Part shown: one piece after another, positions 3,167 to 49,051 of the stretch | How positions within the stretch are numbered: position 1 is the first letter of the stretch | Layout: each line of letters starts with the position of its first letter | From: an uncultured Gammaproteobacteria bacterium | Lineage (GTDB): Bacteria; Patescibacteriota; Microgenomatia; Levybacterales; GWA1-39-11 | Assembly (NCBI GenBank): GCA_964394645.1 | Contig: CAYMYC010000001.1 | Location: 117,299-181,298, forward strand | DNA: 64,000 nucleotides | Direction: 5' to 3' | Notes under the pieces: generated by a model | Database searches by the model: none | What the model saw: the letters and a program-made list of their open reading frames with translations, nothing else | Told to the model about the DNA's origin: nothing | Program-made: the position numbers and the translations under genes

Positions 3167-6100
3167 ATGGATAATAATTTAGCTAAAAAAAGACAAAATA
3201 GAAAATTTGACGCAATTAATATATCAGACTTTAAGGGTCTTAAAATTTTAGTTGCAGATCCAACCACCATAAAAGATCTTTCATATGGTGAGGTAACAAA
3301 ACCGGAAACGATTAACTATAGAACTTATCGACCTGAAAAAGACGGATTGTTTGATGAGAGAATTTTCGGTCCTACGAAAGATTTTGAATGTTATTGTGGA
3401 AAATATAAAAGAATACGCTACAAAGGAATTGTTTGTGATAGGTGTGGGGTTGAGGTAACTTATTCTCGTGTGAGACGAGAACGTATGGGGCATATTTCAC
3501 TCGCAACACCTGTGGTGCATGTATGGTTTTCTAAAGGAACTCCTTCTAAGCTATCTACGTTATTAGATATTTCTCAGAAAGAGCTTGAGTCAGTTGTATA
3601 TTTTGCTTCATACCTAGTCGTTGAGCTTGATGAAGAAAAGAGAAAGGAAGCACAAAAGGTATTGGCGGAATTAAAGAGCAAGAGAATTGAAAAAATAAAA
3701 GAACAAGTTGAGGAAGAAAGAGAAAAATTAGCACAAGAAGAAGCGGATAAGTTGAAGGAGATTGAAGCAACTCTTTCAGAAGAGCAAAAAAAATTAGTTC
3801 TTGAGGAAACTAGAGTAAGCTTCAGACAGAAAAACATAGCTTTAGATAAAAGACTTGAGACAGAAAGCGCAAGAACTGAAGAGATTCTTACTCGCGTATC
3901 AGATATTGTTAAAAGTCTAAAACTTTGGAATGTGTTGTCTGAAGAAGAATATGTACGCCTAATTGAATACGATATCCCACTGTTTTTCGAGGTTTCAACG
4001 GGTGCACAAGCAGTACTTGCTGCCATTGAGTCAGTCGACACGCAAAAGCTTGTGGGTGAGCTTCGTGAGGAAGTTAAAAAATCATCTGGTCAAAAGCAAT
4101 TAAAATTGCTAAAAAGACTGCACCTTATCGAGTCAATCAATAAGGCAGGATTCAAGCCGGATTCGCTAATCTTGAGAATTCTTCCAGTTCTTCCACCAGA
4201 TCTTCGACCAATGGTTCAACTTAATGGTGGACGATTCGCAACATCAGATCTAAACGATCTTTACAGGCGCGTTATTAATAGAAATAACAGACTAAAGCAT
4301 CTTATTTCATTGGGTGCCCCTGAAATTATTTTAAGAAATGAGAAGCGAATGCTTCAGGAGGCAGTCGACTATCTAATTGATACCTCAATTAGGACTTCTA
4401 CCACCCAAAGACAATTCAAATCGCTATCTGATATTCTTCGCGGAAAGCAAGGGAGATTTAGAAAAAACCTTTTGGGTAAGCGTGTAGATTACTCTGGTCG
4501 TTCAGTTATTATAGTAGGTCCAGAGTTAACATTAAATCAATGTGGTCTTCCAAAGGAAATGGCGCTTGAGCTTTTTAAGCCATTTGTTATTCGCGAGGTT
4601 ATCACGCGTGGATTAACAACTCCAAATGCAAAAGCTGCAAAACGATTCATTGAGAAACGCCCCCCAGAGGTATTTGATATTTTAGAAGAAATAACTAAAA
4701 ATCACCCTGTGCTTTTAAATCGTGCTCCAACTCTTCACAAGTTAGGAATTCAGGCATTTTATCCTGTTTTAGTTGAAGGATCGGCTATAAGAATTCATCC
4801 ATGTGTTTGTGCAGGATATAATGCTGACTTTGATGGAGATCAAATGGCTATTCACGTTCCATTATCTTCTCGTGCGCAAGAGGAGGCAATTAAGCTTATG
4901 ATGCCTGAGCACAATTTACTTAAACCAGCAGATGGATCTCCAATCACGCTTCCAAATAAAGAAATGGCACTTGGAGTATTCTATTTTACCTCAGTGGACG
5001 AACGGTTAAGACGTGAAGTTCTTCCTCATTTTGTTGATGAGCAGGAAGCATTTTTTGCATTTTCTCTTAAGAAAATTGCACTTCGTGAGCCTATTATGGT
5101 CAGAATTAAAGGGAAACTAATAGATACAAGTATAGGAAGAATTTTATTTAATGAAAAACTTCCAGAAAAGATGCGATATGTAAACACGGAAGTAAAAGCA
5201 TCAACAATTAAGGAATTGGTAACTCGTGCGATGGTTGAGTTAACTGAGGCAGAGGTTGGAAAGTTAATTGATAGCATTAAAGAGATTGGATTTTATTCTG
5301 CGACAATTTCAGGTATTTCTGTTTCTACATTTGATCTTAAAATGCTTGATAACAAGAATCAACTCATTTTAGATGCTGAAAAGAAAGTTATGGACATAGA
5401 AAACGAATATCAGCAGGGATTAATTACTCTTTCCGAGCAAAAAAGATTAATGAATAATGTTTGGCTTGAGGCAACTGAAAAAATAGCAAATCTTACATGG
5501 GAGCTTTTTGATAAAAATGATATGGTAAGAATTATTGCTGAATCAGGTGGAGCCCGTGCTGGGAAGGACCAAATTAAACAGCTTGCGGCTATGCGTGGAC
5601 TTATCTATGATCCGCTTGGTCGTATCGTTGAACTTCCAATTAAATCTAATTTCCGCGAAGGTTTGTCAATTTTTGAATACGTAAACTCTGCGCGTGGATC
5701 AAGAAAAGGTCTTACCGATTCAGCATTAAAAACAGCAGATGCTGGATATCTAACTCGTCGGTTAGTTGATGTGGCTCATGATGTAATTATTCGTGAAATG
5801 GATTGTGGCACAACGGAGGGTATGCCTGTTGACATGAAGTTGCGTGAAAACACAGCGTATATGACCAATATGCTTCTAGGAAGAACGGTAATGCATGATG
5901 TCAGAAAAGGTAAAAATATATACGTTAAGAAGGACGATCAAATAGACCATGATACATTGCCGCAAATTTTAACTGATGAAGTCACGGAAACTATAACAGT
6001 AAGGTCTCCCCTCTATTGTAGATTAAAATATGGTCTTTGCGCCCTTTGTTACGGATGGGATATGAGTTCATATAAACTTGCGGATATGGGTACACCAGTT

Positions 6101-41878: not shown

Positions 41879-43447
41879 TTACGGGATGTAGTATAGTGGT
41901 AGTACGCTGCGCTGGGGGTGCAGTAGTCCGCGTTCGATTCGCGGCATCCCGACACTGAGAGAAGAGCCGGCGGAAAGCTCCGCCGGTGAAAGTCCCGCAA
42001 TCGCGGGACGGATTGAGTCAAAGCCCTTTTTAAAATTGGCGTAAACACAGCCATCCTCTAAAAAGAAGTTCGAGCCGACATGTTTTGCTAGATTTGCCAA
42101 ATCTAGTTGGTTATTTTTTGCGCGCGCTATTTTGTCGCATGACGATGCGACATTTATGAATTCCCTAAGAGGTTCGAGCGAGCGAGAACCTCCCTCCTCC
42201 AAAACCTCTATCTTTTCCTGAATTTTTATCTTTTCTTCAAAGAGTTCATTCTTCTTTCTCTTGTAGTTATCGCCCTCAATGTCCCCCTCAAGATAACTAT
42301 CAAGAAGAATGTCCATCTTCTTATCGAGAGACGAAGCTTCCTCTTTTAATTTTCTCATCCTTACATCCGATAAGCCTTTTTCGGATATTTCATCCCTTTC
42401 TACTAACCCCAGCCACCGGTCGCGCCATGAGGTAGGGATGGAAACGGATAAAACAATTTTTCTTAATTGGTCTTCAAGTTCTTGGGCAGTCACCATTTTT
42501 TGGGAACACGGACCCATCTTTTTGGTACAGCGGTAATAAATATAAGTTGCCGAACGGTTAGTCCCTTTATAAAACTTTACATGCCTTTCGGCAGTTACGG
42601 AAGCACCGCACTCTTTACAGCGAAGAAGACCCAAAAACGTAAAGACCGGAAGCTTACTATTTTGCCTAACTTTTCTATTTAACTTTTCCTGGACTTTATT
42701 GAACAACTCTTTAGAGATGAAAGTCTTGTGGGTCCCGAGATGATACTCGCCGTTGTATTTTAAAATGCCGATGTAGAATTTGTTGGACAATATCTTTCTG
42801 ACTTGGTTAAGGTGTAAAGGCTTTCCGTTTTCCTTTTTTATCCCCAATTTTAAAAAGTAATTTGAAATATCCGTAAAGGTTTTATCCTGTTCGCAAAACA
42901 ACTCAAATGCCCCTTTTATGGCCCGAGCTTCGTTTGGGACTATATCAATGCCTCGAGTCTTCGGGTTGTTGGAATAACCATAGGTAGTCTTCCCAGGCCA
43001 GACGCCATTTCGTATCTTTTGCCGAAGCCCCCTTTTAACATTCTCGCTAAGATTGTCGATGTAATATTTGCTTTGGCCGAAGGCGATATTTAACATGAAC
43101 TTTCCCTGTGGAGTGTTATCAAACCAAAATGTAGGAAACTTTAAATCCTTTAATTTTCCGGTATCAAGCAAATAGATGATCTTGCCCCCGTCAATAGAAT
43201 TTCTTGCAAGTCTGTCCGGATGCCAAGCAAGAATACCACCGGCTCTGCCTCTTTCGATAAGTTGCATGACTTTAGCAAATTTTTCCCGTCCTGGGGCTTT
43301 GGCGGTCTTTGCCTCTTCAATAACTTCGAGGATCTCAAGCTTCTCCCGTTTTGCGAACTCAAAAAGCTCAGCAATTTGCGCTTCAATGGATAAAACCTGC
43401 TTATCGGCTTCGTCTCTTGATTTACGGCAGTAAATTATGTATTTCAT
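41879..43447 (-). CDS. Large serine recombinase (resolvase/invertase catalytic domain + recombinase domain + Zn ribbon + coiled coil)
   Basis: N-terminal YCRKSRDE catalytic-Ser motif; Cys-rich ribbon (CKECG...CTKKMGPC); 522 aa. The last ~55 codons are read through IR1-L and antisense to tRNA-Pro. Confidence 0.85.
   Translation of the reverse strand: MKYIIYCRKSRDEADKQVLSIEAQIAELFEFAKREKLEILEVIEEAKTAKAPGREKFAKVMQLIERGRAGGILAWHPDRLARNSIDGGKIIYLLDTGKLKDLKFPTFWFDNTPQGKFMLNIAFGQSKYYIDNLSENVKRGLRQKIRNGVWPGKTTYGYSNNPKTRGIDIVPNEARAIKGAFELFCEQDKTFTDISNYFLKLGIKKENGKPLHLNQVRKILSNKFYIGILKYNGEYHLGTHKTFISKELFNKVQEKLNRKVRQNSKLPVFTFLGLLRCKECGASVTAERHVKFYKGTNRSATYIYYRCTKKMGPCSQKMVTAQELEDQLRKIVLSVSIPTSWRDRWLGLVERDEISEKGLSDVRMRKLKEEASSLDKKMDILLDSYLEGDIEGDNYKRKKNELFEEKIKIQEKIEVLEEGGSRSLEPLREFINVASSCDKIARAKNNQLDLANLAKHVGSNFFLEDGCVYANFKKGFDSIRPAIAGLSPAELSAGSSLSVGMPRIERGLLHPQRSVLPLYYIP
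41882..41952 (+). tRNA. tRNA-Pro (anticodon GGG), hand-folded
   Basis: Cloverleaf: acceptor CGGGATG/CATCCCG, D-arm GTAT-AGTGGTA-GTAC, anticodon stem CTGCG/TGCAG with loop CTGGGGG (G37), T-arm CCGCG-TTCGATT-CGCGG, discriminator A; CCA not encoded. Confidence 0.8.
41950..42052. repeat. IR1-L: ~103-bp inverted repeat arm (near-exact partner at 43487-43590)
   Basis: Reverse complement of 43487-43590 (1 mismatch, 1-nt indel). Contains internal GC hairpins CCGGCGG-aaagct-CCGCCGG and GTCCCGC-aatc-GCGGGAC. Confidence 0.9.
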
Positions 43448-43486
43448 GGCAGTTAAAATTTTCGCGTTTATCTCCTCTTCTTTTTT

Positions 43487-43590
43487 GGCTTGTGTTTACG
43501 CCAATTTCAAAAAGGGCTTTGACTCAATCCGTCCCGCGATTGCGGGACTTTCACCGGCGGAGCTTTCCGCCGGCTCTTCTCTCAGTGTCG
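43487..43590. repeat. IR1-R: inverted copy of IR1-L, 40 nt upstream of the recombinase start
   Basis: Direct alignment to the reverse complement of 41950-42052. Confidence 0.9.
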
Positions 43591-43647
43591 AGATCTATGA
43601 AAAAGTTAGAACTCTTCTTTGTTAGCTCGGCCGCTTCGCGGCCTCGC
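43587..43647. repeat. IR2-L: 61-bp inverted repeat arm abutting IR1-R through a shared GTCG
   Basis: Exact reverse complement of 48923-48984; contains GGCCGC-ttc-GCGGCC hairpin. Confidence 0.9.
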
Positions 43648-43876
43648 CAAAACATGTCGGCTCGAATTTGAAACGCGAAAATTTTTTTCAATTTAAAATG
43701 GCCGCTCTGGTTGAACACAACAGGATCTCTCCAATTGTCCAAAGCGGCCATCAAAAAAGAGATCCAAAAATGTTGTGTTCGATTTTAATATACCAGTTTC
43801 ACGAGTTTAATCAACTAAGAGTATCTATAACAAATATATAGTTTTGCTACAATTAAAAAAGATGTGAACATCTAGT

Positions 43877-45691
43877 ATGAAATTTCCCATTAAGAAATTG
43901 TCCGAGTTTAGAACAACTATTAAATCATCAAAGAGATTGCTGGGGTTACTTTGGAACATTGATAAATGGCTATTTACAGGAAATTTGATTTCAGTAAGTG
44001 TTCCAGCAATTATTCCTTTTGTTAACGCTTATATCTATAAGCTTATTATTGATTTAATTATTGCGGGAGTCGGTAGTACTGACTTTGACTATCAGCAACT
44101 TTTTTGGCTTATAGCCATGAGAGTAGGCACACTTTTTATACAAGATGCTGCTTTTTCTGCACAAAACTATTTTGAAATGCTTCTTTGGACGAAATTTCCT
44201 GTGCATCTTTATCAAGCTGTTCTTACAAAACTATCAGATTTAGATGTTCAATACTTTGAAGATAGTTCTTTTAAAGATAGATTGGAAAAGGTAAGAGAGG
44301 CATATGCATGGAGGCCGTTAAATATGCTCTCACATCTGTTCTACAGCTTCCAAGGCGTATTACAAGTTTTAATTGCACTAGTTGCAATAGCAACCCTTAA
44401 TTGGTTTTTAATCTTTTTAATCCTTCTTGTGGCTATCCCAACATTTGTGAATCAAACTCACTACGCAAAAATCACTTGGGGTGTATGGCAGGATAACTCT
44501 CCCTATAGAAAGAAGTTTTGGTACTTATCAGATTTAATTCAGGGGGGACAAAGTGTGAAAGAGATAAAAATTTTTCAAATGGCCCCAAAGTTTTTGTCTG
44601 AACTGACTAACATCTATAACAAGTTTGTTAAAGACAATGCAAAAGTAGCTAAAAAGCAACTTCGTACAAATATCTTATTTAACATGCTTGGTACGGGTGT
44701 ATATATTGGAATTGAGATCTTTATTATTCTTGCTGCCGTTGCAAAGAGGATTTCTATAGGGGATATAACCTACTTTACAGCTGTAGTTAGTAATTTCCAA
44801 AATGGAGTCAATGGATTATTCCGTAATACTTCTCAATTGTTTGACCAAAGTCTTTATGTTCAGGAGATGTTTGAAGTTTTAGATATTAAGTCAAAAATAA
44901 CCCAACCTGCTAATGCTGTAAAAATAGACATACATGAAGGACCTAAAATTGAGTTCAGAAATGTAAGTTTTATTTATCCCGGGGCCGGAGAAAAAATCCT
45001 CAATGATTTTTCCCTGACAATTGAACCGGGTCAGAAGATTGCGTTTGTTGGAGAAAATGGCGCTGGTAAAACAACAATTGTGAAATTATTAGCCCGATTT
45101 TATGATGTAAACGAAGGGGAAATCTTAGTAAATGGCATTAACCTTAAAGAACTTGATTTACCAACTTGGTATAAAACTTTAGGGGTTCTCTTTCAAGACT
45201 TTATTAGGTATGAGTACCCATTTCACGAGAATATATACTTTGGAAAGATTTTTGAGCCTGAAAATATTGAGGAAATTAAGCATGCTGCAAAATTGGCAGG
45301 AGCAGATACCGTAGCTTCACAGTTACCTAAGGGCTACGACCAAATGCTTGGAAAGACTTTTGAGGGAGGGATTGATTTATCTGCAGGCCAATGGCAAAAA
45401 GTGGCGCTAGCAAGAGGTTTTCTACGAGATGCCCCTATTCTAATATTAGATGAGCCAACGGCAGCAATTGACGCGAAAGCGGAAGCAGAGATATTTGATA
45501 GGGTGGAAAGGTTATCTAAAGATAAAACTGTAATTATAATTTCCCATAGATTTTCTACCGTAAGAAATGCCGATAAGATTTACGTGATAGAGAAAGGTAA
45601 AATAAAAGAAGATGGCAGCCACGAACAGCTTATGAGGGAAAATGGAACTTATGCAACCCTATTTAACCTTCAAGCAAAAGGTTATAAATAA
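43877..45691 (+). CDS. ABC transporter, fused permease/ATPase (type I exporter)
   Basis: 6 TM N-terminal domain; NBD with Walker A GENGAGKTT, signature LSAGQ, Walker B ILILDE. Confidence 0.9.
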   Translation: MKFPIKKLSEFRTTIKSSKRLLGLLWNIDKWLFTGNLISVSVPAIIPFVNAYIYKLIIDLIIAGVGSTDFDYQQLFWLIAMRVGTLFIQDAAFSAQNYFEMLLWTKFPVHLYQAVLTKLSDLDVQYFEDSSFKDRLEKVREAYAWRPLNMLSHLFYSFQGVLQVLIALVAIATLNWFLIFLILLVAIPTFVNQTHYAKITWGVWQDNSPYRKKFWYLSDLIQGGQSVKEIKIFQMAPKFLSELTNIYNKFVKDNAKVAKKQLRTNILFNMLGTGVYIGIEIFIILAAVAKRISIGDITYFTAVVSNFQNGVNGLFRNTSQLFDQSLYVQEMFEVLDIKSKITQPANAVKIDIHEGPKIEFRNVSFIYPGAGEKILNDFSLTIEPGQKIAFVGENGAGKTTIVKLLARFYDVNEGEILVNGINLKELDLPTWYKTLGVLFQDFIRYEYPFHENIYFGKIFEPENIEEIKHAAKLAGADTVASQLPKGYDQMLGKTFEGGIDLSAGQWQKVALARGFLRDAPILILDEPTAAIDAKAEAEIFDRVERLSKDKTVIIISHRFSTVRNADKIYVIEKGKIKEDGSHEQLMRENGTYATLFNLQAKGYK

Positions 45692-45735
45692 ACTTTTTTT
45701 CCCAAAAGACAATTAACCCATCGAGTGGCGGCACA

Positions 45736-46275
45736 CTATTTTCTATTTCTTGAGGCATATCGACGAAGAGATTCACTACCGACAAGGGCACCCATGAAGC
45801 TTACTGATGCTAGAAAGGATGCTGCAGCTCTATTGTGAGAATCTTTCCCAACCTCTTTACTATCATCTTTCTTAAGATCCTCCTCCAGATACTTTAATAC
45901 CATGTCTCTTTTTTCCTCTACTGGAAGTTCTTCGAAGCCATCTAGTTTTTCTTTGTTCTCTTCGTAGAAGTCCTTTACTTGATCTGGTATCGCTTGCTCT
46001 AATCCTTCAAAAGTAAACCCTTGCAAAGGGAGGGGGTCAACATCGTCAACTTGATCTTTGATTTTAGCTTCATTTCTTGCGTCTCCATATGCTACTGAAT
46101 CGTAAGTAACTGATGGAAGGAATGTTGCCATAGATGCAAGACCCGCTATACCCATTGCCGCATTTAGACCCTTCCACCCACGATGCTCATTTCTTGGGGA
46201 TTGTTCCCTCAACGTGTCTTCTTGACCCAACTGATCTTGCTGTTCTTCTTCCATATAGTAAAGTGAGTTTAACAA
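45736..46275 (-). CDS. Hypothetical acidic protein
   Basis: 179 aa, Glu/Asp-rich; no family assignable; inside the IR2-bounded cargo. Confidence 0.45.
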   Translation of the reverse strand: MLNSLYYMEEEQQDQLGQEDTLREQSPRNEHRGWKGLNAAMGIAGLASMATFLPSVTYDSVAYGDARNEAKIKDQVDDVDPLPLQGFTFEGLEQAIPDQVKDFYEENKEKLDGFEELPVEEKRDMVLKYLEEDLKKDDSKEVGKDSHNRAAASFLASVSFMGALVGSESLRRYASRNRK

Positions 46276-46378
46276 CTCTCAAATTTTCTGTCAAATTTGT
46301 GTAACCCATCAAAAAGGCTGACTGAGTTGGATAAATAGACTTTTGACTTTTAAATTAGCAGTGTGATTCAATAGGTTA

Positions 46379-47068
46379 ATGGATGGTGACATAGAAAGTT
46401 CTCCTCAATCGGTGATTACATCACTTGATGTCAGCGAAAATAAAGCCAACTTCATGCATGAAGACCAAAAAGAAGCACCCGAAGCTCCAGAGTTTGGTAT
46501 TAAACTCTCTCCTGGTATACGATTGTTTCATGGAAGGTCGTCAACCGAAGACATTGATATCTGGCCCCTTCCGGTCGCCAAAAGAACGGTCAATGGTCTT
46601 GGGTTTTATTGCACAACCGACCCAGCAATTGCAAATCCATACGCTAAGATAGATCTAAGAAATGAATCTGCCGCCCGGGTTTATCCTCTTACACCGAAAG
46701 AAGAATTAACGCTTTTTAACGGTTTTATAAAAGATAAAGGTACTTTTTCAAAATATCTAGCAGAGAAAATTTTTGATGAAAATGATGAGAGAAAAGAAAA
46801 GTTTTTAGAAGAGATTAGAAGACTTAGGGAGATGAATAAAGATGGATTCGTTTTCAGCGATAATGTATTAGGAGTAATTCTGTCTTTCGTTGATGAGGAA
46901 AAAGCAAAAGATCTTGAGGAAAAGAAAATTCTTGAAAATGAAGTTCTGAAAAAGGTAGGTTATGATGGTAAAGGATGCGAGGAAAACGGTGTTATGGATG
47001 ATACAATTCTGATTTTTGATCCTGGAAAATTAGAAACGGAATTTAATGCAGAGCAAAAAGCCGCATAG
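46379..47068 (+). CDS. Hypothetical protein
   Basis: 229 aa; no confident family; weak RLFHGRSST motif noted. Confidence 0.5.
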   Translation: MDGDIESSPQSVITSLDVSENKANFMHEDQKEAPEAPEFGIKLSPGIRLFHGRSSTEDIDIWPLPVAKRTVNGLGFYCTTDPAIANPYAKIDLRNESAARVYPLTPKEELTLFNGFIKDKGTFSKYLAEKIFDENDERKEKFLEEIRRLREMNKDGFVFSDNVLGVILSFVDEEKAKDLEEKKILENEVLKKVGYDGKGCEENGVMDDTILIFDPGKLETEFNAEQKAA

Positions 47069-47122
47069 CAATCATAGAGTGAATTCCACTAAAATAGATT
47101 CATTAGATCGAGAAGTAAATAT

Positions 47123-47506
47123 ATGGAAAAACGAATTGGCACAGTAGGATTCATTGTTAATAACAATAAAGTTTTGTTAGCACATATTCAATACCCAGAG
47201 GGCAAAAAATTATGGAATGGGATCGGAGGATTTGTTAATAAAGGAGAAAAACTTGAGGACGCCTTAATAAGAGAAATCAGCGAAGAAACATATATACAAG
47301 TTAGCAAAGACGAAGTGCGTTTGGTGAAAGAATTGGACGAGGATATCAGACTTTTAATTTTTAAAATTAATAACTGGAAAGGAGAACTTAAAATTAAAGA
47401 CTCATCAATTAAGGAGTTAAGGTGGTTTAAATTTGATGAAATTCCATTTTCAGAAATGCATGATGGAAATGAAAAGTGGCTACCTGACTTATTAAAAACA
47501 CCATAG
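47123..47506 (+). CDS. Nudix hydrolase
   Basis: Nudix box GGFVNKGEKLEDALIREISEETYI. Confidence 0.8.
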   Translation: MEKRIGTVGFIVNNNKVLLAHIQYPEGKKLWNGIGGFVNKGEKLEDALIREISEETYIQVSKDEVRLVKELDEDIRLLIFKINNWKGELKIKDSSIKELRWFKFDEIPFSEMHDGNEKWLPDLLKTP

Positions 47507-47540
47507 TTACATTGTAATTTCGTATACTAATATTAATACA

Positions 47541-48338
47541 ATGAAAATTCATTTTATTGGATTATCATGTTTTCTTATTGAAAATGCCGCTGGCTTTCGA
47601 ATACTAGTTGATCCTTTTGAGGATAACCCCGAGTGGACGTTGGGTCCTATATTTCCAAAGGAATTTAGCAGTAAACCCTTTGGAACAAATATTGTATTGA
47701 TGTCTGAAACTGATGCTGATCATGCAAGGGCTCCACATGAATGGCAACAAAATGCACCTATTGTAAAGCCTGACAATAATCCTTTTCCAAATTTAAATTT
47801 GAGTGGTACATTAGTGCATGAATGGAATGGTGAAGCTTGCATTGCCTGGCATTATACTATTGATGGTATACGGCTTGCTCATTTTTCAGACCATGCTCAC
47901 CCGTTGACCGTAGAACAACTTACAGAAATAGGAAATCCCGATATTATCTTTTACCCACTTCCAAAAGTATCGTGGGACGATCAAGAAGCGTTTAATATCA
48001 TAAGAGAAGATATTAGCAAGCTCAAACCAAAAATTGTAATTTGGGCACATTTTATAGCACCTAAAAATATGCCTTCAGTGGATGATAAAGAAGCGCTCAG
48101 ATCATATTTTATCCAATATTTTAAAGACAACGCATCGACTAACTTGGGATACAAAGGTGAAGACAGTTTTATGGAATTAGGAAATATGATATACAGTGGT
48201 TTCAAACTCACAAATGAATTAAACGGAAAGATAATGGAAGCACCTACGCTGGAGCTTGACCAAACAACAGTTGATGCTTTTCAGCAACCAACTCCATTTT
48301 TCTTCACCAGTATGCTTGCTACTTCAAAAACTGAATAA
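47541..48338 (+). CDS. MBL-fold-like hydrolase (paralog of 8207-8869)
   Basis: N-terminal beta-lactamase-fold pattern (FLIENAAGFRILVDP..ETDADHA). Confidence 0.55.
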   Translation: MKIHFIGLSCFLIENAAGFRILVDPFEDNPEWTLGPIFPKEFSSKPFGTNIVLMSETDADHARAPHEWQQNAPIVKPDNNPFPNLNLSGTLVHEWNGEACIAWHYTIDGIRLAHFSDHAHPLTVEQLTEIGNPDIIFYPLPKVSWDDQEAFNIIREDISKLKPKIVIWAHFIAPKNMPSVDDKEALRSYFIQYFKDNASTNLGYKGEDSFMELGNMIYSGFKLTNELNGKIMEAPTLELDQTTVDAFQQPTPFFFTSMLATSKTE

Positions 48339-48339
48339 T

Positions 48340-48920
48340 ATCAAAACAAGTCATAAGCCTGTGGTGATCCACATCGGTTTTTTGGATTTTTCTTTTCTTG
48401 GGCGGCATCCACCGCCCCCGCCCGCATGGAATTGCGCCCTAAAAAGAGAAAAATACTTTACTGGTAGCCAATGAATTAGTAGGAACTATACAAAGTATTT
48501 TTCTCCCACACGAGCCCCGCGAGAATTTGTCTTGTTAAAAGAGAACGCGGGGCGAGTCAGTAGGTGTCTTCTTAATGGTTTTAAACAGGAAGGGACTAAA
48601 TAAAAGTCGGCGGGGGCGAATAAGCGGACACCCCTCCGACGGCGCTTCCTTTTTAAATGGAAATAATTTTTCGGAAGAGACTGTATTAAGGTTTTAGAAC
48701 TGGCAAAACTTTGGCGAGTTGCGCCTTAGTGCAACCTGCGCCCAAAGGAAGGGGTCGCCGCCACAATATCTTGGGTGGGTTGGGTTTTGTAGGATAAGAC
48801 TCACGGTTTGTTTTATATTCTTTTTTAAAGGGAGTACAATAATCCAATATTTATAATTTGTCCGCGTAGGGAGGGATTTTGGGACAATGACAATTTCTTT
48901 TTTCTTCGCGCGCAAAAAAT
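48340..48920. other. GC-rich hairpin-dense noncoding region (candidate structured RNA or recombination region)
   Basis: Multiple perfect GC stems in AT-rich context: GGGCGG-catcca-CCGCCC, GCCCCGCG...CGCGGGGC, GTCGGCGGGG...CCCCTCCGAC, GTTGC...GCAAC. No credible ORF. Confidence 0.5.
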
Positions 48921-48922
48921 AA

Positions 48923-48984
48923 CCTAGCGAGGCCGCGAAGCGGCCGAGCTAACAAAGAAGAGTTCTAACTTTTTCATAGATCTC
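48923..48984. repeat. IR2-R: inverted copy of IR2-L closing the 5.3-kb cargo segment
   Basis: Exact reverse complement of 43587-43647. Confidence 0.9.
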
Positions 48985-49051
48985 GACTGAATAAAATATG
49001 AGGAAATGATTTTCAAGAACCTCTTCAGTAAGTGTCTGGTATACTGAGAAA

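Follow-up and report, generated by a model that had tools for sequence, protein, structure and literature searches.

The window analysed here is a 64,000-nucleotide stretch of bacterial DNA in which a gene for a large serine recombinase (LSR) runs on the minus strand into a tRNA-Pro(GGG) gene. The product of the 522-aa open reading frame (ORF) contains Resolvase, Recombinase and Zn_ribbon_recom domains (Pfam matches PF00239, 1.2e-19; PF07508; PF13408), and its last 25 codons contain the entire tRNA-Pro(GGG), antisense; the frame does stay open through the whole tRNA to 41879, as the first-pass annotation had claimed. Two inverted repeats organize the region. The first (41946-42049 and 43491-43594; 104 nt, 98% complementary, 0 expected by chance) flanks the LSR gene, and its outermost 8 nt are the tRNA 3' end (ATCCCGAC versus ATCTCGAC); the second (43587-43647 and 48927-48987; 61 nt, 100%) brackets a group of cargo genes. 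The right arm of the 104-nt repeat overlaps the left arm of the 61-nt repeat by 8 nt, and the repeat arms contain three related sites (S1, S2 and S3). The main features are as follows.

41882..41953, plus strand: tRNA-Pro(GGG) (ARAGORN; Rfam RF00005, 59.2 bits), with the T-loop GTTCGAT at 41932-41938; a predicted attB-type left half-site
41879..43447, minus strand: LSR ORF, 522 aa, with residues 1-498 encoded by the element and 499-522 by antisense tRNA-Pro
41946..41953, plus strand: core of S1 (putative attL), ATCCCGAC, from the comparison of S1, S2 and S3
41954..42065, plus strand: A' arm (putative P' arm of attP beside the tRNA), coding for LSR residues 466-498 on the minus strand
41967..41986, minus strand: CCGGCGGAGCTTTCCGCCGG and then CTCTTCTCTC, a terminator-like hairpin that the LSR ORF contains before it reaches the core or any stop codon
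43470..43586, minus strand: A arm, second copy of the putative P' arm (IR1-R), near-identical over 43491-43586
43587..43594, minus strand: core of S2, common to both repeat pairs; GTCGAGAT on the plus strand, the reverse complement of ATCTCGAC
43595..43647, minus strand: B' arm (putative P arm of attP), with a GC hairpin and, at 43606-43612 on the minus strand, the T-loop mimic GTTCTAA
43877..48338, plus strand: cargo genes (ORF calls and annotation)
48927..48987, plus strand: B arm and core ATCTCGAC, together S3 (putative attR) and right end of the element; core at 48980, mimic GTTCTAA at 48962-48968

The A' arm is near-identical to its partner over 41954-42049, diverges over 42050-42065, and contains two GC-rich hairpins (fold z = -3.4); the terminator-like hairpin has a mirror copy in the other arm, at 43554-43573 on the plus strand, and LSR transcripts may end at it as non-stop messages. 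When the repeat and its surroundings were compared with Rfam, the tRNA was the sole match and no family was found for the arm hairpins. A direct repeat of the tRNA 3' half was sought elsewhere in the window and none was found, so that the locus is no tyrosine-integrase island of the classical type, in which the att repeat is long. An assembly artefact is excluded as well, the same anatomy being present in assemblies made with IDBA, MEGAHIT and SPAdes and in those from long reads, complete genomes among them.

The recombinase and its C-terminal tail

The protein is a serine integrase by its domains: a catalytic serine (S10, invariant within YCRKS in the LSR alignment), a recombinase domain, and a zinc ribbon into which helices 339-442 of the AF2 model are inserted as a coiled coil. 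Its best match among solved structures is the SPbeta integrase (9dxh, E = 4e-11). Built on the family alignment, the model is confident to about residue 480, with two strands (458-464, 467-472) and a helix (474-479) near the end, and pLDDT is below 50 over 483-522. The repeat arm hence codes for the last ~15 folded residues of the LSR and then ~17 disordered ones.

Across the other arm, the plus-strand ORF 43437..43625 encodes the same 33-aa string, CVYANFKKGFDSIRPAIAGLSPAELSAGSSLSV, and continues as EIYEKVRTLLC, in agreement with the first-pass annotation; its suggestion that the repeat is the duplicated 3' end of the gene also holds, the duplicated part being codons 466-498 plus the att core. 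Homologues do not stop ahead of residue ~465 but continue to the core. Among cluster mates whose bodies are identical, the protein ends in different antisense-tRNA tails or in the EIYEKVRT... tail. The ~17 disordered residues are a translation of the hairpins and of the P' half-site, in which SLxV is conserved as the DNA site, and the tail past residue 498 probably has no function.

A family of recombinases in Patescibacteria

More than 7,500 relatives of the LSR were found, almost all of them in Patescibacteria. In an alignment of 35 relatives (54-70% identity) nearly all C-termini resemble translated antisense tRNA, the GIEP/RIEL motifs corresponding to the antisense T-arm. Loci were fetched from genomes (80) and from metagenomes (80), and 157 homologous loci were surveyed. 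Inverted arms surround the LSR gene at 132 of the 157 (45-130 nt, usually 96-100% identical), and at 82 of these armed loci a tRNA on the opposite strand adjoins the downstream arm; 78 of the 82 tRNA-adjoining ORFs lack a stop before the junction, and the median ORF runs 20 codons past the arm. At least 14 tRNA isotypes are targeted (Pro, Val, Trp, Lys, Glu, Tyr, Leu, Gly, Arg, Gln, Ser, Phe, Ala and Ile). LSR subfamilies are matched to different tRNA ends.

A search of viral contigs found the LSR family almost absent from them, which makes a phage origin unlikely. A literature search retrieved no published description of this Patescibacteria LSR family; the element family is apparently both large and undescribed.

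Three related putative attachment sites

Read in the tRNA sense, S1 consists of the tRNA (ending in GCGGC before the core), the core ATCCCGAC, and the A arm beginning with ACTGAGAG. On the minus strand S2 reads TTCATAG, ATCTCGAC and ACTGAGAG, that is, B arm, core and A arm, while S3, again in the tRNA sense, reads TTCATAG, ATCTCGAC and TGAATAAAATATG, that is, B arm, core and flank. S1 and S3 are in direct orientation, and S2 (43491-43647) is inverted relative to both. S2 therefore combines the left arm of S3 with the right arm of S1; as the exact reciprocal recombinant of the two, it is best read as a putative attP that is still intact, which would make S1 the attL and S3 the attR. Serine integrases cross over at a central dinucleotide. 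A C/T mismatch at 41949, to the left of the crossover, and the points at which the arms diverge narrow it here to the 4 nt CGAC (41950-41953), which hold the final two bases of the acceptor, the discriminator and a further base. An arrangement of three sites like this one, in which a core of 1-11 nt matches the 3' end of each tRNA (often GCACCA), was found in about 37 of the first 80 loci having enough upstream sequence.

The core-proximal arm of S2 and S3 carries GTTCGAA after GAAAT in the family (attP consensus over 44 loci, GAAAT-NN-GTTCGAAtTTtTTC.aAaA); the window copy of this T-loop mimic reads GTTCTAA. Compared with the T-loop of the adjacent tRNA, GTTCGAA is displaced outward from the core, by 4 bp in 12 loci and by 5 bp in 22, as measured from the identity boundary and not from a mapped crossover centre; the three exceptions are loci whose S1 is itself an element-type arm. 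In the LI integrase the zinc-ribbon-domain (ZD) motif lies 5 bp nearer the centre in attB than in attP (Rutherford et al., PMC3783163), and the displacement measured here agrees with that published rule. By the same rule, the tRNA would be an attB-type half-site and the mimic an attP-type half-site. The right (P') arm has a GGAAAT-like block followed by GC-rich hairpins that vary with compensating changes, and it does not mirror the P arm, an unusual condition in the attP of a serine integrase.

An empty attB for this genome, with the predicted sequence GCGGCATCCCGAC/TGAATAAAATATG, was sought in JGI metagenomes and gave no match, and the organism may be absent from that collection. Because the empty site was not found, the right boundary at S3 and the host nature of the DNA from 48988 onward are deduced from the logic of the sites.

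Movement among tRNA genes and a circular relative

P0121, a protein that clusters with the window LSR, is identical to it through ...SSLSVG and then differs. Its contig (L082), from another assembly, is 99.7% identical to positions 46282-41950 of the window; the identity stops at the S1 core, and the contig adjoins a different tRNA-Pro(GGG), having TCCCGAC alone in common with that of the window, with a different gene next to it. A related element is found in sister samples (L183-L187) at tRNA-Pro(CGG), tRNA-Pro(TGG) and tRNA-Pro(GGG), 99.5-99.9% identical over 3.7 kb, in short-read contigs that are unable to phase the flanks across the repeat (L186 versus L187). In LSR clusters at 90% identity or more, identical bodies bear many different tRNA-derived tails; a few members, P0194 and P0157 among them, have an attP-type tail (SRCVEIYEKVRTEF, SACVETYRKVRT) like the alternative EIYEKVRT... 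tail of the window.

One contig (L037) has a 51-nt terminal overlap and so forms a 4585-nt circle, with restriction-modification cargo. In this circle attP lies directly at the LSR 3' end, without a tRNA, and a 10-N gap falls exactly where the second attP is expected. The locus in the window, then, has an integrase at the edge, an intact tRNA, direct cores at 41946 and 48980, the same element at other sites, and a circular relative, and on these grounds qualifies as an integrative element at a tRNA gene.

Short repeats beside S2

Several shorter sequences of the LSR gene recur at the head of the cargo segment.

42066..42087, minus strand: C', codons of AKHVGSNF, containing GGCTCGAAC; invariant in the family; inverted copy at 43648-43669
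43455..43469, minus strand: D', LSR leader or promoter-proximal block, AAACGCGAAAATTTT; inverted copy at 43671-43685, upstream of the cargo
43648..43685, plus strand: joined copies of C' and D' that open the cargo segment, a piece of the LSR 3' end running directly into the LSR leader block

The inverted C and D copies stand side by side inside the cargo segment, beside S2, in most of 70 loci, and are usually perfect; joined in this way, they read like the junction of a circularized LSR module lacking its arms. The breakpoint in L183 falls exactly at the edge of D', and ARAKNN codons of the LSR occur on the inner flank of the B arm both in the window and in L183. A search of the cargo segment for an LSR pseudogene gave only these short C, D and ARAKNN-codon fragments. 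A role of C' as a pseudo-attB with fixed spacing to GCTCGAA is excluded, the spacing being 18 nt in L039 versus 7-10 nt in the window and L187.

A proposed integrative element with an internal attP

We propose that the DNA from 41954 to 48987 is, in all likelihood, an integrative element of ~7.0 kb whose LSR inserted it at the tRNA-Pro(GGG) 3' end, with S2 as an internal inverted attP. Its attP would be asymmetric, consisting of a P (B) arm with the T-loop mimic, a short core, and a P' (A) arm over the last ~33 LSR codons. The core would correspond to the last acceptor bases and the discriminator, plus CCA where the tRNA gene encodes CCA, and attB to the T-arm and acceptor end of the tRNA, the core, and the downstream flank. 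Recombination of attP with attB would yield attL (S1, at the tRNA) and attR (S3, at 48980) and keep the tRNA intact. Because the LSR gene would lie at the edge of an element inserted at the tRNA 3' end, its ORF, having no stop of its own before the core, would read into whatever DNA adjoins it, here antisense tRNA-Pro. A second complete attP (S2) would be kept, inverted, where the LSR and cargo modules meet: it has the same A arm as S1, so that the LSR gene is bracketed by the 104-nt inverted repeat, and the same B arm as S3, so that the cargo is bracketed by the 61-nt repeat.

The anatomy of the sites, its conservation in the family, the attP/attB offset, mobility from tRNA to tRNA and the circular relative are the observations that carry this proposal. 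In its free form the element would be circular and carry attP twice, in inverted orientation; gene conversion or occasional flipping may keep the arms nearly identical, and the arm hairpins may insulate the tRNA and the att core from transcription. Several points count against the model. The empty attB was not found, the arms of attP do not mirror each other, the short perfect C, D and E repeats do not derive from the model, and in L037 the place of the second attP is taken by the gap. Two equivalent attP sites on a circle lead one to expect integration in either orientation, while orientations of 82 versus 3 were observed. Canonical serine integrases are not known to recombine attL with attP. 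S2 may serve as a further integration site if the circle has two repeats, be recombined in rare inversion events, or act as an operator between the divergent LSR and cargo units.

A bolder version of the model, which we regard as rather doubtful, would have the T-loop, universally conserved in tRNAs, serve as the distal half-site motif and the left half-site alone set attB versus attP, so that the attL on the tRNA side still acts as attB. Under such rules one enzyme might suffice for integration, for excision (S1 x S3) and for inversion (S1 x S2), no directionality factor being needed, with the internal attP and the conserved pseudoknotted motif beside it as control elements. No candidate was identified in the element for the recombination directionality factor (RDF) that serine integrases require for excision.

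Inversion and alternative explanations

The first-pass annotation had offered shufflon-like switching of the C-terminus as one of two readings, and a programmed invertible switch in which the recombinase flips its own gene and exchanges its tail or promoter context, in the manner of Hin/Gin or R64, would account for the near-perfect inverted repeats around the gene. Both orientations do exist among relatives: the flipped arrangement (tRNA on the plus strand, core, A arm, LSR on the plus strand) occurs in L169 within a single contig and in L068 and L080 at contig ends. Moreover, 25 of the 132 armed contigs end in an arm, and the cargo interior of L183 is inverted relative to that of L185-L187. 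Rearrangement at the repeats does occur. We nevertheless consider such a switch unlikely. The two orientations are far from balanced (82 versus 3), and the C and D copies hold one relative orientation wherever they were detected (most of 70 loci); this bias, with the constant orientation of the modules wherever scored, argues against free flipping. The repeats end in att cores that match the 3' terminus of the tRNA, and one and the same element is found next to different tRNA genes. The claim that inversion would swap the tail is right insofar as the tail after residue 498 depends on the DNA adjoining the core, but every junction sequence is the same after inversion, and what would be exchanged is disordered (483-522, pLDDT below 50), unconserved, variable in length and dictated by the host tRNA, which is no functional exchange. 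The swap of tails is best read as a by-product of attP overlapping the 3' end of the integrase ORF, and not as a shufflon.

A smaller mobile unit (41946-43594), an IS-like transposon that comprises nothing but the LSR gene between terminal inverted repeats of 104 nt and hops into tRNA 3' ends, is suggested by contigs of 1.6-1.9 kb that hold only arm, LSR and arm (L002, L052, L059 and L071) and by the presence of the LSR at many tRNAs. It is very improbable: the 8-nt cores at its ends are inverted and not direct, so that a serine recombinase would invert the unit instead of excising it, no target duplication of the kind made by a terminal-repeat IS is seen, L082 and L185-L187 have the cargo segment in common besides the LSR, and assembly breaks induced by the repeats would produce such short contigs. 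Least credible of all is a resident, domesticated recombinase that regulates the tRNA by antisense transcription or 3'-end remodelling with the repeat as operator, for which the constant convergence of tRNA and LSR and the position of S2 between divergent LSR and cargo units, like a Tn3 res site, can be cited, against recent mobility (L082, L183-L187), a circular form (L037), a terminator-like hairpin before the core, and cargo that varies between loci.

Comparison with known systems

In its three-domain architecture, coiled-coil insertion and short core-centred sites, the integrative element proposed here resembles the systems of the LI/A118, phiC31, Bxb1 and SPbeta SprA integrases, and it shares with the LI integrase a motif placed farther out, here by 4-5 bp, in attP than in attB (PMC3783163). 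Unlike all of these, it targets tRNA 3' ends and would use the T-loop as its distal motif. Characterized serine integrases, as far as we know, target protein-coding genes. Other differences from the phage serine integrases are an asymmetric attP that overlaps a stop-less integrase ORF, a second inverted attP inside the element, and the near absence of the family from viral contigs. No description of counterparts was found for the internal inverted attP, the stop-less integrase ORF or the associated structured motif.

Like tycheposons and tRNA cargo islands, the members of this family are small cargo elements at tRNA 3' ends that restore the tRNA. A survey of tycheposons found an LSR instead of a tyrosine recombinase in 27 of 937 elements (bioRxiv 10.1101/2020.12.28.424599). 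Whereas those elements mostly use tyrosine integrases, a serine enzyme is found throughout this family, and it is only a core of 4-8 nt that is repeated, in place of a long direct copy of the 3' half of the tRNA; inverted repeats of ~100 nt and an inverted attP in the interior set this family apart from tycheposons and tRNA islands.

In mycobacteriophage BPs-type immunity systems and in SSV-type integrases attP lies inside an ORF, such that the integrated and excised states differ in a C-terminus. The present elements likewise have attP within an ORF; here that ORF is the serine integrase itself, and both alternative tails are predicted to be disordered and probably carry neither a degradation tag nor any other function. 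As in Hin/Gin/Cin, the R64 shufflon and 2-micron FLP/FRT, the recombinase gene lies within a segment bounded by inverted sites, and a circle would be split by two inverted repeats into two invertible segments. In contrast to the invertases, the shufflon and FLP, the sites here are putative integration sites (attL, attP and attR) rather than ones devoted to inversion, no coding partner is exchanged, and the orientation is strongly biased.

Serine integrases are among the leading tools for inserting large DNA, each needing its own pre-existing target. Integrases that dock on the tRNA T-loop and 3' end would be a new source of such enzymes with predictable targets, because every genome carries these sequences, and the family also offers a natural test of the attP/attB offset rule. 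The small genomes of Patescibacteria are thought to be poor in mobile DNA, and for these bacteria an abundant element that moves between tRNA genes with varied cargo has been identified.

Cargo and a pseudoknotted motif

The space between S2 and S3 holds a structured motif and the cargo genes.

43698..43782, listed on the plus strand (the folding strand may be either): conserved pseudoknotted motif of ~85 nt
43877-45691: ABC exporter
Minus strand: ORF of 179 aa
ORF of 229 aa with a weak ART-PolyVal match
47123-47506: NUDIX protein
47541-48338: MBL-fold protein

The motif, which is part of the backbone of the element, pairs 43698-43706 with 43743-43751 (P1), 43711-43721 with 43772-43782 (P2) and 43723-43730 with 43758-43765 (P3), and its loop is CCAATTGTCCAA. 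Neither the motif nor the 590-nt non-coding stretch at 48340-48926 had a match in Rfam. A function of the loop as a bridge-RNA-like target guide is excluded, as the loop TGTCCRA is constant while the att cores differ among subfamilies. The cargo itself differs between loci, with ABC exporters, restriction-modification systems and membrane proteins among its products.

Structure and covariation of a predicted pseudoknot

The head of the cargo segment carries a conserved non-coding motif for which a three-helix pseudoknot is predicted; it lies a short way 3' (+) of the D block, a copy of the leader of the large serine recombinase (LSR), irrespective of the type of cargo. The features concerned are as follows.

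43698-43782 (given on the + strand; the fold may form on either strand): predicted three-helix pseudoknot, conserved and about 85 nt in length
43648-43685, 42066-42087 and 43455-43469: short perfect repeats C (a fragment of the LSR 3' end) and D (the LSR leader)

The motif is present in about 36 loci (for example, L126 1850-1936 and L029 5580-5666). In the predicted fold the 5' halves of helices P2 and P3 are enclosed by P1, and a conserved loop, TGTCCRA, precedes the run TTAAAAAA. Pairing was scored on 29 distinct sequences, aligned blind to structure: canonical pairs make up 96%, 85% and 92% of the helices, against 22-50% in shifted controls, and compensatory changes are found at 8 of 9, 9 of 11 and 7 of 9 positions. 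A search of the motif against Rfam returned no match.

Recombinase-derived repeats and the origin of the B arm

The C and D copies, present in most of 70 loci, always stand side by side within the cargo segment, adjoining the internal attP; joined, they resemble the junction of a circularised LSR module without arms.

Distally, the cargo segment has 590 nt (48340-48926) that lack open reading frames and show GC-rich patches; neither Rfam nor a tblastn search for an LSR remnant gave a match there. A 16-nt stretch at 48908-48923, immediately on the inner side of the B arm (the P arm of attP), is identical to the ARAKNN codons of the LSR (42110-42125). The window copy could by itself be chance; the fragment recurs on the inner flank of the B arm in L183, a near-identical relative of the L185-L187 elements, at about 5737-5752. 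It suggests that the B arm derives from a degenerate LSR 3' end.

Arrangements in related elements

At 3863-4290 of L183, the cargo segment of the near-identical element meets a tRNA-Lys gene (+) via an A-type arm that belongs to another LSR subfamily, and the element is therefore bracketed by two convergent tRNA genes; the breakpoint falls exactly at the edge of the LSR leader block, D'.

The related element L037 is a circular contig (JAOAFZ010000010.1, 4636 nt). Its cargo, probably a restriction-modification system, comprises genes for a C5 DNA methyltransferase and a Vsr-like endonuclease plus an open reading frame of 291 residues. The contig has a 10-N scaffold gap at the place expected for the second attP.

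In L082, a 99.7%-identical element at another tRNA-Pro(GGG) gene, the 5' part of the tRNA, together with upstream sequence (GTTTGACGGCAACGTTCCGTTACCGTTAAACTACCCCCCG), is partially repeated in tandem past the tRNA, at 4400-4560, in two to three copies. The LSR copies of L083 and L084 are 99% identical, whereas their arms are just 90-92% identical and differ in one hairpin, with compensating changes (TCCGCGAAGCGGA versus TCCGGCAAAACGCCGGA); the downstream arm of L083 adjoins no tRNA and no clear T-loop mimic.

A long recombinase form of 865-911 residues also recurs (P0002, P0004, P0005, P0008, P0010 and others; locus L035). P0004, the sole long form compared, consists of a full LSR and an in-frame second copy lacking the first ~115 residues, a fusion with two DNA-binding modules and one catalytic domain.
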